Assembly: GCA_016839815.1 (NCBI GenBank) | Contig: JAEOTM010000036.1 | Location: forward strand, 1-39,235 | Direction of reading: 5' to 3' | Source of the DNA: Candidatus Hodarchaeota archaeon | GTDB lineage: Archaea > Asgardarchaeota > Heimdallarchaeia > Hodarchaeales > Hodarchaeaceae | DNA length: 39,235 nt | Shown: positions 1,142 to 6,666 of the stretch, one piece after another | Layout: each line of letters starts with the position of its first letter | How positions within the stretch are numbered: the stretch's first letter is position 1 | Program-made: the position numbers and the translations under genes | The notes under the pieces: generated by a model | Told to the model about the DNA's origin: nothing | Databases searched by the model: none | Seen by the model: only the letters and a program-made list of their open reading frames with translations

Positions 1142-4018
1142 TTGAGAACAAACCCCATTCTTCACTCTTTACTTCATATATATTTAGAAATAATCTCTAG
1201 ATCGCTAGATGAGAATCCAATGACCAGTGAATGGAAAGATATTTTTGGATTGATTACCAACATCAGAAATAGGTTACTTGAGTCATGTAGTTTATCTTCT
1301 GGCAAGAAGCTTGAATTTGTGGATCAATTTCTCCTTCAATTAACGGTCTTATGGGTTTTACAAAAACATCGCTTCTTTAATAATGATAAAAATTATTTTA
1401 ATAATATGTTTCAACTAATTGCCCAAAAATCTGCTGGCATTGCTTTCAATACAATCAATGATTTTATGGATTCTTTCCTAACAAGATTAATAGCATTAGA
1501 AGATTTTCAAATCAGTCAGGATTCAGATTTTGGTAGATTGCGAGGGTGTAAATCAGCTATCTTTATCGATCTGGTCTCTATCAAACAGAAAACTGACTTT
1601 CCAAATGATCTGTACTATTTAGATTCTGATAAATCGCACACGTCCAAGACGGAATCTCTGACTGCAGGGATATTCTCTATTCTCGATCGATTTGATAATC
1701 AGATCACTGGTGCATTTTTAGGATCATTATACGAAAAATTGATATCTTCCGAAAAGAAAAGGCAAGGAGGAGTATATTATTCACCTGTTGAACTAACTGG
1801 TTATATCACCCGCTATTCATTACGAGTATATTTAATGGATCAGTTAGGATCAATGGATTACTCTATGTCGGATGATATTTCTATAATCATTAAATCCCTT
1901 GACAAACCTGGAATTTTAAGATTGTATGAAAAATTAAAGGATATTTCAATCTTGGATCCTGCTGTTGGTACTGGACAATTCTTGGAAAGTGCTGCTGATG
2001 AATTGTTATTAGTGTATTCAATGGTAATTAAAAGATTTAAAGAATTACAAGAACCAATGATCTTAAATGATAATATGGATCAATCTGACAATATTATTCA
2101 CAGTGTAGACTATACAAAGGTACAAGATAAAGCAGAAACTCAATTTTATTTACTTAATTTCTTGATTTTTCCAAAATCCTTGTTTGGAATTGATATCGAC
2201 CCTTTCGTGATTCCTTTTACCAAAGCACGATTGTTTATCTATTTAGCACAATATTTTAAGGAAAATATGACACACCATTCCCTAATTCTACCTTTTCAAT
2301 GTAATCTCCAAATTGGAGATGCACTTCTACTTAATTGGAAAGATGCTTTTAAACCAATGTCAACCTCTCACGCCTTTTTTTCGCTCATTCTTACCAATCC
2401 TCCCTATATTGGAGAAAGTAATAATAAGGATATTTTTCGAACATATTCTCTTGCCTTTCCAAGTTACTATGAAGGAAAACTTGACATTTGGTATTTATTT
2501 TTCCATTTAGCAATAAATCAAGTAGTACCAAAAGGTATTGTCTCGTTTCTGACTACAAATTATTGGCTAACTGCTTCGGGAGCTTCTAAATTACGAAATA
2601 GAATATACTCCGAAACCTATATTTTGGAATTTATTGATTTTGGTGAAAATCGCGTATTTCAGGGAGCTCATGGGATTCATTCTAGTGTTATTATTATAAA
2701 AAACCTTAAGGCTCAAAATCCGACAATTAACTGTGTTTCCTATACGAATAAGATTCCTAAAGGAGAACATCTCTTAGATCATATATCCAATCAATTAACT
2801 TTCCAGATTGATCAAAAAGACCTTACTCTGGACAACTGGGATAAATATTTTCACTTTATCCCTCCGGATGTCTCCCATATATTAAGAAAAATTATAGATA
2901 ATTGCTCATCACTAAAGGATTCGACTTACAGTGTGAAAGAGGGGTTAATTACCGGTTTAAATAGAATTAATAAAAGGCAAATTCAGAAATATGGTTATCC
3001 TTCAGCATGGATAAATCGTGGAATATTTATCTTCAATCTAACAAATGAAAATGACTATAACACTCTTGAAACCTTTACTATTGAAGAAAAAAAGTATTTG
3101 AAACCTATTTACAAAAATTCTTCAATTGAACCGTATTCAACGCGGGTTCAAACCCACTTACGCTTATTGTATCTTGTTAAAAGTAATCTAGACCTTTCAA
3201 TCCTTCCTAATATAAAGAAACATCTTGATCACTATCATAAGGCACTTCGTAATTCACTCGATCATCCTCCTTACCTCAATCGTCCCCGAAAACCAGAGAT
3301 CTTTCTTTCTCCCAAACTGGTTACACCCCAAAGATCCCGAACAACGCGATTTGCTTATAATTGCACTGAATGGTTCGCCACACAAGATGTCTATTTCATA
3401 TGTGAAAGAGGAAAATCTAAGCGAAAACTTAAGATCCTTCTTTTATTTTTACAATCTAAGGTTTCTTTTTTCTGGTTTTCATGGATGGGGAAAAAAAAGG
3501 GCTCTCAATTAGAATTTTTTGGAGAATCTATTTCTAATTTTCCTATTCCAAAAGTAGTAGATAATCCGAACCTTTTGGTACGAATAACAGAATATTTAAT
3601 ATTTTTTTATACGCTTGACAAGGTACCAAGAGAGTTCCATCATATCTGGGCTTACTTTGAGGAGAAAATTGCATCTTTAATCACCTATACACATTTTTTC
3701 ACAGATTTGATTCTCTCCAGCAAAAATAAACACCAATCCTACAAAGATATATCGGATAAATTACTCCAAAATCTTAAAGAAATTAATATTGAGAAATTCT
3801 TGACCTTTCGATACTCAATTTTTGCATCATATGATCATGAATCTGCTAATAAAGATGAAAATTCTGATATAATCGAAACTTATCTAAAAATTATCGGGGA
3901 ATCATACAATAGAATCTCTAAAGATAAGCAAATCATGGATTTCTACAATTATGTAAATACTTTTTCGATTGTTAAACAAATTAACAATTTTTATGCATCA
4001 AAAAACCATAAAAAATGA
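1142..4018 (+). CDS. Large gamma-class N6-adenine DNA methyltransferase (Eco57I/TaqI-like, with TaqI_C-type target-recognition region); likely true start ATG 1220
   Basis: LGSLYE..GVYYSP (motif X), ILDPAVGTGQFL (motif I), LFGIDID, LTNPPY (motif IV), WLTASGASKLR, FIDFGENRVF, C-terminal PKLVT..RFAY..QDVYFI..LQSK pattern. No convincing PD-(D/E)xK nuclease domain seen. Confidence 0.85.
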   Translation: MRTNPILHSLLHIYLEIISRSLDENPMTSEWKDIFGLITNIRNRLLESCSLSSGKKLEFVDQFLLQLTVLWVLQKHRFFNNDKNYFNNMFQLIAQKSAGIAFNTINDFMDSFLTRLIALEDFQISQDSDFGRLRGCKSAIFIDLVSIKQKTDFPNDLYYLDSDKSHTSKTESLTAGIFSILDRFDNQITGAFLGSLYEKLISSEKKRQGGVYYSPVELTGYITRYSLRVYLMDQLGSMDYSMSDDISIIIKSLDKPGILRLYEKLKDISILDPAVGTGQFLESAADELLLVYSMVIKRFKELQEPMILNDNMDQSDNIIHSVDYTKVQDKAETQFYLLNFLIFPKSLFGIDIDPFVIPFTKARLFIYLAQYFKENMTHHSLILPFQCNLQIGDALLLNWKDAFKPMSTSHAFFSLILTNPPYIGESNNKDIFRTYSLAFPSYYEGKLDIWYLFFHLAINQVVPKGIVSFLTTNYWLTASGASKLRNRIYSETYILEFIDFGENRVFQGAHGIHSSVIIIKNLKAQNPTINCVSYTNKIPKGEHLLDHISNQLTFQIDQKDLTLDNWDKYFHFIPPDVSHILRKIIDNCSSLKDSTYSVKEGLITGLNRINKRQIQKYGYPSAWINRGIFIFNLTNENDYNTLETFTIEEKKYLKPIYKNSSIEPYSTRVQTHLRLLYLVKSNLDLSILPNIKKHLDHYHKALRNSLDHPPYLNRPRKPEIFLSPKLVTPQRSRTTRFAYNCTEWFATQDVYFICERGKSKRKLKILLLFLQSKVSFFWFSWMGKKKGSQLEFFGESISNFPIPKVVDNPNLLVRITEYLIFFYTLDKVPREFHHIWAYFEEKIASLITYTHFFTDLILSSKNKHQSYKDISDKLLQNLKEINIEKFLTFRYSIFASYDHESANKDENSDIIETYLKIIGESYNRISKDKQIMDFYNYVNTFSIVKQINNFYASKNHKK

Positions 4019-4081: not shown

Positions 4082-5020
4082 TTAGTTGAAATAATAATCT
4101 AATGTTCGTGAATCAGCTTGAGAAAGAGTTTGATTCATTCGATTTCTGATAGTTTTCACATACGATGATTGCTTCAGGATGAAGTCATGATTTTGAGCAG
4201 TAAGAAACATCCAGACATTCCACAGAGCTCGGTTTGTCCATCCTTCAGCTCCTGGTATTTGAAGTGATCTGAAACAATGAAGAAAAGGTGGTTTATAGGT
4301 CTCGAAAATCTTTGGTGTTAACCATTTCCTTGTTTGTGTAGAACGTCGGACTCTAGGAATAGATCTCGACCCTTCTGGAGTATAACAGTCCCCAATAGCT
4401 GCATTTTTTCTCCATCCAATCCAATCTATTGTTTGGAGATAGTCTTTGAATATAACCTGGTGAAATGGACTCCCTAATCCAAACCCATGGAAATTTTGTG
4501 TCGTTAAGGAACGGAATTTGGCTATCCATGCAGCCACATCGTAAACACTTCCCTTTTCATTGATTTTCAAAGAAGGAACCATCCCTCCCAACCCAATGTA
4601 GGGACCAGAGTAATCAGTTAGATTGATATTCGGAAAGTGCACAACTGGCAATACTGGATGATCAATTTTCTTATCCAAAGTAGACCAATTCTGCCATGAT
4701 TTCTTCCTTTTACCAATAACATCCAAATTGATAATAGTATCCCCATCATTCACTCCTACATCCTTAAGAAATGTAATATACTTATTCAAGGGGATATCTA
4801 TTCCAGTTTGATGTGCACTATAAGCACCTGAATCGATCATTATTGGGCCATCGTATGAGAAATAATCATGTAGACCTTGGTCTTTAATTTTCTTACTCCA
4901 CTTTTTAAATTGCCAAAATGAGAATAAAATCCCATATTTACGTTTAAGCATGAACTGATTAATTAAATCTTCATACATCCAAGGAAAAAACCCATTAACG
5001 ATACCCAAGTACAATTTCAA
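4082..5020 (-). CDS. tRNA-guanine transglycosylase (TGT)/DpdA-like TIM-barrel base-exchange protein, paralog 1
   Basis: TGT-family motifs in the expected order: MIDSGAYS, INLDVIG, LPVVH, IGLGGMVP, FHGFGLG, TIDW (nucleophile Asp position), RALWNVW (normally RxxHN). Confidence 0.75.
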   Translation of the reverse strand: MKLYLGIVNGFFPWMYEDLINQFMLKRKYGILFSFWQFKKWSKKIKDQGLHDYFSYDGPIMIDSGAYSAHQTGIDIPLNKYITFLKDVGVNDGDTIINLDVIGKRKKSWQNWSTLDKKIDHPVLPVVHFPNINLTDYSGPYIGLGGMVPSLKINEKGSVYDVAAWIAKFRSLTTQNFHGFGLGSPFHQVIFKDYLQTIDWIGWRKNAAIGDCYTPEGSRSIPRVRRSTQTRKWLTPKIFETYKPPFLHCFRSLQIPGAEGWTNRALWNVWMFLTAQNHDFILKQSSYVKTIRNRMNQTLSQADSRTLDYYFN

Positions 5021-5136
5021 AACGAATCTTTCCCCTAAATGTTTATTATTGAGTATTATTCAAGGATGTAATTAATCCACTAGGGGATTGTTATCTTCCC
5101 TGAAACATAGGTACATATAGAAAAAAGTGCTAATCG

Positions 5137-5616
5137 ATGTCATCACCGAAAGGTCTTCTCATCATCTCATGTGGGAAGAAAAAGTCCCAAGAACTCAAGC
5201 ATCGTGCGTTAAGGGCGGAGGATGCATATAAAGGTCCTATGTTTCAAGTAATTAATAAAGCAAAAAGGGAAAAGAGGTGGCCTAATAGTCTGAAACTAGG
5301 AATTATCTCAGCTAAATATGGATTCTTACGATCAGATGATGAAATCAACGATTATGATCTATTTATGTCAAAAGGAAGAGCGGAAGAACTTAATGCACAA
5401 GTCATTAGCGGAATTAGAGAATGGCATGAGACAGAAGCATTTTCGATAATCTATGTTCTCACGGGTAAAGACTACTTAAACAGTGTGCACGGACTAGCTG
5501 AATTCATTAATACAGAAGTAAGGATTGAGAATATGGGAGGATTAGGAATTGGCCAGAGAAAACTTGTTGATTTTATCAATTCATTAAGTACTATTGGATT
5601 AGTAAACAGAGGCTAA
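5137..5616 (+). CDS. DUF6884-like (YaaA-related) protein
   Basis: LLIISCGKKK, AEDAYKGPMF, IISAKYGFL, I.DYD..M and LTGKDY match my recollection of the DUF6884 signature (IISCxxxK..A.dlY.g..F..ilSAkyGl..i.pYd). Confidence 0.7.
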   Translation: MSSPKGLLIISCGKKKSQELKHRALRAEDAYKGPMFQVINKAKREKRWPNSLKLGIISAKYGFLRSDDEINDYDLFMSKGRAEELNAQVISGIREWHETEAFSIIYVLTGKDYLNSVHGLAEFINTEVRIENMGGLGIGQRKLVDFINSLSTIGLVNRG

Positions 5617-5622
5617 ATTAAA

Positions 5623-6666
5623 ATGAGTTTTGCGTTGGGAACTCCTATCAGTGCCCGAGTACGACCTTGGCAGTTCGATTGGATTGTAAAACCTGATTTT
5701 CTAATGATTTCTGCGGTTGATTTTATGCAAAATCCAAATCTTTTTGAAACAATAAAGAAATCAGGCATTCATGAATATCTAGAATGGGATGGGCCTCTAG
5801 TTTGTGATTCTGGAGCGTTTTCAGCTCTAAACAGAAAGAAGAAGATGAACCTGAGTCTACAGCAGCTCAAAGTTTTTTATCGTGAACTTTCAAGGCAGGA
5901 TCCTGAAATCATCAAGATAACATTAGACTACCCTGATAAGGATATTTTGTCGAATTACTTAGAATTATTACCTTATGAAATTCAACCGGTCATTCCCCAC
6001 AACCAATTACATCTTTTGGACGAAATTGTATCAGAAGCTGGATTTTCTGACTGGAGTTTTATCGGACGCTTAGTACCTCTTATGAGAGGAGGGAGCGGGT
6101 ATAAAAATCGATTATTTAAGGCTCTAAATAATTTCAAGAGAGAAATGCAGAATTTTTCCTCGTCTGAGATAAGTAAGATATGGGCACTGGGAGTAGGTGC
6201 ACCGAGTATTCTACACGAAGTTCTATCTGCTGTAGATGGATGTGATTCTTCGCGGTGGAGAATTACAGCCTCAAATATGATACTACTTCCTTTCGGGGGA
6301 GAAAGGGGAATTGGGAGTAAGACGAAGTGGAGAGGGACTCATCATCGTATTGAAGAAGGAATGGAAAAGAAATGTGTAATCAATATCCTTAACCAGATTG
6401 ATATCCGCTCGGGAGGATTAGAAACCCTTGATAAGTCATTACAGGTGAATGCTTATCCAAAACAACTTAAAAATAATTTTGAAGTGAACCTACCAAAAAT
6501 TGGAGATTTGATCGGTAAATTACGGAATGCTGACCAAAATGTTTCAGTTTATGAATTAGAATTGCTTTTGAGGAGTTCTGGGAATCTACGCCTTATTTTC
6601 AATTACATATCAGCGTTATATTATAAATTAGACACCTCGTTTAAAAAGCATATTCAGGATAACTAA
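5623..6666 (+). CDS. TGT/DpdA-like TIM-barrel base-exchange protein, paralog 2
   Basis: LVCDSGAFS, ITLDYP, IQPVIP, FIGRLVP, IWALGVG, DGCDSSRW, RLIFNY. Starts 6 bp after the DUF6884-like gene. Confidence 0.72.
   Translation: MSFALGTPISARVRPWQFDWIVKPDFLMISAVDFMQNPNLFETIKKSGIHEYLEWDGPLVCDSGAFSALNRKKKMNLSLQQLKVFYRELSRQDPEIIKITLDYPDKDILSNYLELLPYEIQPVIPHNQLHLLDEIVSEAGFSDWSFIGRLVPLMRGGSGYKNRLFKALNNFKREMQNFSSSEISKIWALGVGAPSILHEVLSAVDGCDSSRWRITASNMILLPFGGERGIGSKTKWRGTHHRIEEGMEKKCVINILNQIDIRSGGLETLDKSLQVNAYPKQLKNNFEVNLPKIGDLIGKLRNADQNVSVYELELLLRSSGNLRLIFNYISALYYKLDTSFKKHIQDN

Follow-up and report, generated by a model that had tools for sequence, protein, structure and literature searches.

Here we describe a gene cluster in the chromosome of a Hodarchaeales archaeon (Candidatus Hodarchaeota archaeon, contig JAEOTM010000036.1, positions 1 to 39,235; this whole stretch is hereafter the window), in which two genes encoding proteins with the fold of tRNA-guanine transglycosylases (TGT), P1 and P2, flank a small gene of the DUF6884 family. 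We put at roughly one half the probability that these are two separately active, salvage-fed DNA base-exchange enzymes, P1 of a standard kind and P2 with a rebuilt pocket, the latter working with the DUF6884 protein and a DNA methyltransferase. The locus would then be a module for DNA base exchange of the 7-deazaguanine or DpdA type, fixed in the chromosome and passed on vertically, with P1 as a standard virus-type DpdA-like guanine exchanger. P2 would retain the double-displacement machinery (acid/base Asp62, base-binding Asp102 and nucleophile Asp208), would be encoded in one closely spaced run of genes with a DUF6884 helper and a tandem DNA methyltransferase, and together with DUF6884 would install, or act on, a base or DNA context different from that of P1. 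The substrate bases would probably be salvaged via a YhhQ-type precursor importer, and each protein would most likely work on its own, not as one half of a live/dead heterodimer. Base exchange in DNA by DpdA-type enzymes has been described in phages and in mobile bacterial Dpd islands; the cluster described here would be a two-enzyme version of it, fixed in the chromosome of a whole Asgard lineage and joined to a DNA methyltransferase and a DUF6884 helper.

An open reading frame (ORF) map resolves region 4082-6666 into three genes, P1 and P2 lying on opposite strands with the 159-aa DUF6884 gene in between:

4082-5020, minus strand: P1, 312 aa, candidate zinc-less virus-type DpdA-like DNA transglycosylase with the full active-site set; codons D63 4832-4834, Y67 4820-4822, D100 4721-4723, H128 4637-4639, G145-G146 4583-4588, H178 4487-4489, D199 4424-4426
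4088-4111, minus strand: C-terminal tail of P1, SRTLDYYF, resembling a PCNA-interaction (PIP) motif
5021-5136: AT-rich intergenic region of 116 bp that separates divergent P1 from the DUF6884-P2-methyltransferase unit and presumably holds both promoters
5137-5616, plus strand: DUF6884 / YaaA-like "cantaloupe-fold" protein, 159 aa; CxxxK motif (C12...K16) at 5170-5184, SAxxG motif S58-G62 (S58-A59-K-Y-G62) at 5308-5322
5623-6666, plus strand: P2, 347 aa, lineage-specific TGT-fold protein; retained Asp codons D62 5806-5808, D102 5926-5928, D208 6244-6246; changed positions Pro125 5995-5997, Arg149 6067-6069, Trp187 6181-6183

All of the motifs that a sequence-only reading of this region had quoted for the two paralogs are found in the translations, namely IDSGAYS, NLDV, PVVH, LGGMVP, HGFG and TIDWIGWR in P1 and CDSGAFS, TLDY, PVIPH, IGRLVP, WALG and GCDSSRWR in P2. 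The two proteins are homologous but distant, with 25% identity over 194 aa (BLASTP, E 1e-9) and family profiles that match each other at E 5.5e-12 (hhalign). AlphaFold2 models built on 36 P1 and 39 P2 orthologues (pLDDT of 90.9 and 88.0, respectively) both contain the TGT-type (beta/alpha)8 barrel, and superimpose on the archaeosine TGT structure 1iq8 (P1: Z 25.4, 281 aa, 3.4 A; P2: Z 19.0, 261 aa, 3.3 A); Foldseek matches of the two models reach E 2e-10 and 2e-8. The top rows of the Foldseek and VIA lists do not include the bacterial DpdA structure 7UI4, an absence from which no conclusion follows. 7UI4 was also unlisted in PDB sequence profile searches with P1 and P2, in which TGTs are matched through the DSG-motif stretch alone, at E 0.005 by P1 and above 1 by P2.

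Established family models capture little of either protein. Pfam PF01702 does not match P1 and scores P2 at 16.1 bits, below its gathering cut-off of 26.3, and the TIGR00432 equivalog scores them at 29.3 and 17.7 bits, respectively, against a cut-off of 350. Neither protein is matched by Pfam DpdA PF23859, by DUF6610 (DpdA4) or by the PADLOC DpdA model, and the PADLOC scan as a whole matched neither. The zinc motif CxCxxC is found in 0/36 P1 and 0/39 P2 orthologues, with CxC alone retained in some P1 orthologues. P1 does match phrog_887 (phage "queuine tRNA-ribosyltransferase"; E 1.5e-20, residues 12-276), a test that P2 fails (E 0.099). A profile search of 1.8 billion representatives returned 3424 relatives of P1, and nine of ten that were tested are phrog_887 proteins of 268-349 aa, the tenth being a weaker match of 392 aa. 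For P2, sequence and profile searches detect only 68 relatives in 5.8 billion proteins, all from the same lineage, and its best viral fold matches are DpdA-like proteins with a TMq of ~0.5. Judged by its sequence, P1 is a standard virus-type DpdA-like enzyme with everything that group has: it is alike in every motif to the short, zinc-less viral DpdA proteins bearing DSGA[FY] (phrog_887; HRTV-29 DpdA, annotated homologues of the Sulfolobus viruses STSV1/2, and Megan gp2/gp3), is similar to them in length, and likewise lacks the zinc motif.

The distinction between the two proteins lies in their active sites, which we mapped on an alignment of P1, P2, ~40 DpdA-like representatives, the archaeosine TGT (ArcTGT) of the same genome, and several viral DpdAs. 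In Salmonella DpdA, Asp95 is the acid/base, Asp130 and His181 contact the base along its Watson-Crick edge, Phe99 and Leu236 stack on it, and Asp256 is the nucleophile (PMC10164549). The mapped positions are as follows:

Acid/base Asp (DSG): P1 D63, P2 D62
Stacking aromatic: P1 Y67, P2 F66
Base-binding Asp (LD): P1 D100, P2 D102
Pocket His (PVxH): P1 H128, P2 Pro125
Gly-Gly: P1 G145-G146, P2 G148-Arg149
His of HGFG: P1 H178, P2 Trp187
Nucleophile Asp: P1 D199, P2 D208

The three Asp of each protein align with those of ArcTGT, TGT and DpdA-like proteins and are invariant among the orthologues (D63/D100/D199 in 36/36 for P1, D62/D102/D208 in 39/39 for P2). The remaining mapped residues of P1 (Y67, H128, G145-G146, H178) are invariant or nearly so in its 36 orthologues, and P1 carries PVxH, GG, HGFG and D-x-x-W as do the ~40 DpdA-like representatives. 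It had been proposed that P1 has DW instead of DS at the nucleophile; this is misleading, as D199 is itself invariant in 36/36 and only the following residue differs. That residue varies across DpdA-like proteins (S/A/W/N/T/Y), and W also follows the nucleophile in the nearest relatives of P1 (P0123-P0125, P0137); since the position is variable in the family and the W is common to these relatives, the DW of P1 is, on this alignment, a subfamily signature rather than a defect. The degeneracy of the pair, thought by the sequence-only reading to be complementary, is one-sided and confined to P2, with P1 holding all features of virus-type DpdA-like enzymes.

In P2, Pro125, Arg149 and Trp187 are invariant in all 39 orthologues and are found in no other aligned protein. 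These changes fall between the catalytic Asp residues and, by DSSP, occupy the C-terminal tips of successive barrel strands (123-125, 144-148 and 185-188), which form the catalytic face. Because the changes are invariant and lie on the active-site face, an altered base specificity of P2 is plausible. The earlier suggestion that an altered pocket lets P2 accept another base thereby gains three invariant changes on that face, and its second half, the other base, stands as plausible. Mean column identity is higher for P2 (65%) than for P1 (51%), and P2 therefore fits poorly with a decaying subunit; by its pattern of conservation it has the look of a functional protein under constraint whose pocket has been rebuilt.

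These residues bear directly on whether P1 and P2 form an obligate heterodimer with labour divided as in eukaryotic QTRT1/QTRT2, in which one partner would catalyse and the other would bind or position the nucleic acid. The asymmetry that P2 brings to such a pair is real, but no catalytic Asp has been lost in either protein; acid/base, base-binding and nucleophile Asp are kept in every orthologue of both, at odds with the catalytic/non-catalytic division that had been drawn from QTRT1/QTRT2. Nor does the premise that TGTs work as dimers carry over, given that the DNA-acting bacterial DpdA is a monomer in crystal and in solution (PMC10164549). We consider the heterodimer quite improbable, and the distribution of the two genes, which offers it some support, also supplies further arguments on the other side.

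We surveyed 83 genomes of the class, comprising 24 of the window's order (one Heimdallarchaeia order, labelled Hodarchaeales in public records; 22 in the window's family and 2 in a sister family) and 59 of other orders. Strong P1 matches occur in 19/24 and strong P2 matches in 23/24 genomes of the window's order, and none elsewhere among the 83; four genomes have P2 and lack a strong P1 match, and two of these four, when inspected, proved to be contig ends. The neighbourhood is kept in genomes whose orthologues are just ~50-60% identical, and this synteny at such a distance points to vertical inheritance of the core module next to a variable flank. The sequence-only reading was right that P1 and P2 are functionally linked, as they co-occur in conserved synteny across one archaeal order. 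Within the order both are present in nearly all genomes. Co-occurrence within the limits of assembly and adjacency in conserved synteny are also what a heterodimer would predict.

Against this, P1 is always on the strand opposite to the P2 unit in the loci examined, forming a separate, divergent transcription unit, and ~12 kb separate it from P2 in two genomes (G060 and G061); in G061 (locus L014) this interval is occupied by a giant surface-protein gene, a glyoxalase, a regulator and a transporter. P1-type and divergent P2-type genes are furthermore each found by themselves elsewhere. One P1-family member (42% identical) lies at 10001-10924 of a 145-kb ENA contig (L030) with neither P2 nor DUF6884 within 21 kb. 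It is surrounded by short, co-directional, overlapping ORFs, two DNA methyltransferases and a Holliday-junction-type helicase, and genes for sugar modification come next; no virion genes were found in the 21 kb inspected, and the layout looks like that of a virus or mobile genetic element. The most divergent P2 sits on a 15.9-kb contig with neither P1 nor DUF6884 present, and the nearest outgroup relatives of P1 are likewise solitary. Two neighbours of one of these, P0124 (ORFs of 303 aa and 152 aa), were tested as candidates for P2 and DUF6884 and are unrelated.

Pairs of DpdA-like genes do recur, as a heterodimer might lead one to expect. Microbacterium phages Megan and Nicole72 each have two DpdA-like matches; those of Megan, gp2/gp3 (L031:670-2543), overlap, are 46% identical, are both canonical, and lie upstream of QueC/QueD/QueE/FolE. 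A genome of another Heimdallarchaeia family (G005) carries a tandem PF01702-positive TGT-like pair of 392 and 389 aa in a defence-island-like stretch, L015:1575-13991, that also contains a 341-aa protein of unknown kind, an N6_N4 methyltransferase, AIPR, a PLD-family nuclease and a STAND NTPase. All copies in both of these twin arrangements look catalytic by their residues, and twin DpdAs thus occur outside the window's lineage, Megan showing that they are not unique to Asgard archaea. Nor are P1 and P2 sisters in a quick tree, in which P1 groups with phage-type DpdAs and P2 with ArcTGT and other Heimdall TGT-like proteins (SH-aLRT 96), albeit on long branches; an approximately unbiased (AU) test does not reject a joint P1-P2 clade (p 0.081), and P0123/P0124 outscore P1 against the P2 profile. 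Taken with the residues, handling of different bases by P1 and P2 fits better than a heterodimer with divided labour, and it is mostly in correcting the live/dead heterodimer picture, which sits poorly with the residues, that the value of this specific finding lies.

The last argument against the heterodimer is that the tight coupling and fusion partner of DpdA-type enzymes is DUF6884 rather than a second TGT. The gene between P1 and P2 matches Pfam PF21818 (E 6.4e-13, 49.5 bits, cut-off 30) and PADLOC PDC-M57A (E 1e-11), with weak matches to DpdC (E 4e-6). The family is characterised by CxxxK and (L)SAxxG motifs and a base-flipping active site has been proposed for it (PMC11701544), and the protein in the window is a probable DNA-binding or base-flipping helper of a DpdA-type enzyme. 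DUF6884 homologues stand directly beside DpdA in two unrelated viruses: in Halorubrum virus HRTV-29 as the overlapping genes gp32/gp33 (L021:4986-6111), and in Fusobacterium phage phiFN37 (L022:4194-6021), where a queuosine-precursor transporter follows. In addition, the 415-aa protein P0243 is a natural fusion of a canonical DpdA-like domain, matched by the P1 profile at E 8e-16, to a DUF6884-like C-terminus, which scores 29.9 bits with Pfam DUF6884, just below the cut-off of 30, and matches the window's DUF6884 protein by BLASTP at E 1e-5. The YaaA-like gene of HRTV-29 has been classed as an unrelated metabolic gene (PMC8651126), and our literature search found no paper linking the DUF6884 and DpdA families. 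On grounds of gene context, the adjacency in two viruses and the P0243 fusion make DUF6884, and not a second TGT, the likeliest physical partner of a DpdA-type enzyme. If the enzymes work as proposed here, DUF6884, which is widespread but has no assigned function, would thereby be given a definite role beside DpdA.

The same coupling admits a different role for P2. It is possible, although unlikely, that P2 is no longer an exchanger and instead uses its TGT pocket to hold a flipped, already modified base which, together with DUF6884, it reads, modifies or removes, leaving P1 as the sole writer. Parallels would be ArcS acting on preQ0-tRNA, DpdC acting on preQ0-DNA, or a glycosylase. Such a role would suit the replacement of the His/Gln that hydrogen-bonds the Watson-Crick edge by the invariant Pro125 and the addition of Arg149 and Trp187, and it would suit the translational coupling of P2 to DUF6884, given the weak DpdC similarity (E 4e-6) and proposed base-flipping site (PMC11701544) of the latter; moreover, the TGT-fold paralogues ArcS and ArcS2 modify instead of exchanging (10.1101/2023.04.13.536721). 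Yet the three exchange Asp, including the nucleophile, are invariant in 39 orthologues, which would be unexpected had the chemistry been abandoned. In addition, viral DUF6884 accompanies a canonical DpdA where there is no second TGT, so that a P2-type partner is not needed, and the ArcS-specific family found no match in the family scans.

We regard DNA as the probable substrate, with fairly good confidence. The genome has its own ArcTGT, a single canonical copy of 641 aa, and P1 and P2 (312 and 347 aa) are without its C-terminal C1, C2 and PUA domains. DNA rather than tRNA is favoured because of this separate ArcTGT, the missing C-terminal tRNA domains, the DNA methyltransferase neighbours, and C-terminal tails that resemble PIP motifs. 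Specifically, 14 of the 36 P1 orthologues end in an extreme C-terminal xxxLxx[FYW][FYWL] tail (e.g., SLDQFF; the P1 of the window ends SRTLDYYF-N), and ~12 P2 orthologues of a 357-aa subgroup end in TLDS(L/I)L; these tails look like archaeal PCNA-interaction motifs. That one or both enzymes act instead on RNA (tRNA or rRNA), adding 7-deazaguanine at extra sites beside those of ArcTGT, seems very unlikely to us. For it one could cite that a tRNA enzyme, ArcTGT, is the best solved structural match for both proteins, and that the family retains ArcTGT while lacking QueC, so that use of 7-deazaguanine in RNA continues. Opposed to it stand the missing tRNA-binding and PUA domains, the grouping of P1 with virus-type DpdA-like proteins, operon partners that comprise a DNA methyltransferase and a member of the YaaA-like DNA-binding family, and the PIP-like tails of many orthologues.

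If P1 and P2 are base exchangers, their bases would probably be obtained from outside the cell. QueC (TIGR00364) is found in 0/22 genomes of the window's family, including genomes that are 96% and 99% complete, compared with 1/2 in the sister family of the same order and 56/59 in the other orders of the class. The YhhQ/Vut_1 queuosine-precursor transporter, on the other hand, is present in 20/22 genomes of the window's family (G000:C42:1859-2383 in the genome of the window) and in 0/2 of the sister family. PF06508 "QueC" matches in this genome are PP-loop/ThiI-like proteins and not QueC. A family that lacks QueC and has both a YhhQ-type importer and ArcTGT would therefore live on salvaged 7-deazaguanine bases; the gene content implies import of whatever 7-deazaguanine ArcTGT, P1 or P2 may use. 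In some genomes, MFS or EamA transporters are found within the cluster itself.

Several points weigh against the reading of the locus as two separately active DNA base exchangers. P2 resembles characterised enzymes in fold and motifs alone, and could have left base exchange altogether. That P1 and P2 are strictly inherited together in the order would be just as well explained by a complex. The members of the module are known here from genes alone, and a modified base in the DNA of this lineage is a prediction. The pocket mapping comes from sequence and profile alignments together with secondary structure, and the direction of the Arg149 side chain lies outside that basis. The PIP-like tail is missing from many orthologues, and the P2 of the window has none. 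Finally, QueC loss and module gain amount to a single phylogenetic event, as related genomes are not independent, and their coincidence carries no statistical weight.

A more far-reaching form of the two-exchanger reading, which we offer tentatively and think improbable as a whole, is that Hodarchaeales chromosomes carry two base-exchange marks that differ in chemistry or in context. The mark of P1 would be a standard 7-deazaguanine, preQ0 for instance, and that of P2 with DUF6884 another base, perhaps a derivative with a carboxylate or other polar 7-substituent recognised by Arg149; both bases would be scavenged from the surroundings, QueC being lost and YhhQ and cluster-linked transporters being present, and writing would be coupled to replication via the PCNA-binding tails. 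Were this true, the archaea most closely related to eukaryotes would hypermodify their DNA as a housekeeping function that depends on salvage.

Comparison with known systems places the cluster between several of them. With the viral phrog_887 DpdAs it shares the DUF6884 adjacency (HRTV-29, phiFN37) and the twin arrangement (Megan). It differs from them in that the module is carried by cells, in their chromosomes, and passes vertically through an order, in that P2 has Pro, Arg and Trp where those proteins have His, Gly and His, and in that no preQ0 synthesis genes are linked to the module. The bacterial Dpd system (DpdA/DpdB/DpdC of Salmonella Montevideo, PDB 7UI4) likewise uses a TGT fold for DNA base exchange, with two catalytic Asp and base recognition by Asp and His (PMC10164549), and has in common with the present cluster, as it is read here, the modification of self-DNA and a small accessory protein, in that DUF6884 is weakly DpdC-like. 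In contrast, its CXCX2CX22H zinc site is missing from P1 and P2, a ParB-like DpdB was not found among the nine neighbouring products scanned, the dpdD-K restriction genes are not in the cluster, and there are two transglycosylase-like genes instead of one and a coupled DNA methyltransferase. Eukaryotic QTRT1/QTRT2 also consists of two homologous, co-inherited TGT-fold proteins that depend on salvage where de novo synthesis is missing; however, QTRT2 is non-catalytic, the substrate is tRNA, and both subunits have zinc sites, whereas all catalytic Asp are kept here. ArcTGT (P. horikoshii, 1iq8), the best solved structural match, has D95 and F99 aligning with D63 and Y67 of P1 and an FDS nucleophile motif resembling the CDS of P2, but P1 and P2 are without its C1, C2 and PUA domains and its zinc site, and the genome has a separate ArcTGT.

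The conserved core is without a dedicated nuclease, a type IIG-like enzyme being found only in the variable flank, and 7-deazaguanine synthesis of its own has been lost from the window's family. If the two-exchanger reading is true, these archaea carry an undescribed, salvage-dependent mark on their own DNA, and P2 would offer a TGT pocket re-engineered by nature, with a substrate that assays could identify.

Outside the three genes considered so far, the neighbourhood contains:

688-1056: ORF of 122 aa, weak Profilin match (E 0.0074), adjoining the type IIG-like methyltransferase
1142-4018, plus strand: Eco57I/MmeI-type (type IIG-like) methyltransferase, 958 aa, by Pfam and PADLOC
6698-9106, plus strand: DNA methyltransferase, 802 aa, with C-terminal N6_N4 domain PF01555 (E 1.2e-38)
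10232-11230: TFIIB, by Pfam

The 802-aa methyltransferase has its strong N6_N4 domain at residues 416-650 and a weak N-terminal N6_N4_Mtase match at residues 80-202 (E 4e-5), a layout suggestive of a tandem or pseudo-dimeric enzyme. The TFIIB gene marks the window as archaeal, and the names of homologues point to Heimdallarchaeota / Hodarchaeales. A methyltransferase of ~800 aa lies directly downstream of P2 in most of the orthologous loci examined (L013, L014, L024) and holds the same position in L010 and L011, where a transporter is inserted. In the window, 6 bp separate DUF6884 from P2 and 31 bp separate P2 from the methyltransferase; the corresponding distances in L014 are 1 bp and 0 bp. 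The conserved order runs from TFIIB through a small ORF, YjbQ and the ~800-aa methyltransferase, with an optional MFS or EamA transporter, to P2, and continues from there through DUF6884 and an optional DUF362 gene to divergent P1 and variable methyltransferase, SIR2 or HTH genes. On the P1 side, the 958-aa methyltransferase of the window is replaced by one of 446-455 aa in L010 and L011, and in L024 SIR2 and helix-turn-helix (HTH) genes stand between the type IIG-like methyltransferase and P1, SIR2 adjoining the methyltransferase; the flank with the 958-aa enzyme is outside the conserved core.

A 574-aa frame in genome G055 (L025:6880-8604) was considered as a P2 fusion and set aside: the P2 frame there enters a fragment of an ornithine/aspartate carbamoyltransferase, the record is annotated as partial, and the 800-aa methyltransferase is missing, and the frame is probably an assembly join or rearrangement. 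Optional inserts in the module occur in L010, L011, L012, L014 and L025, as an MFS/EamA transporter beside DUF6884-P2 or, between DUF6884 and P1, a DUF362 protein of 300 aa. ORFs as long as the 122-aa ORF with the weak Profilin match are found at the equivalent place in two other genomes (L013:13962-14330 and L024:2756-3124).

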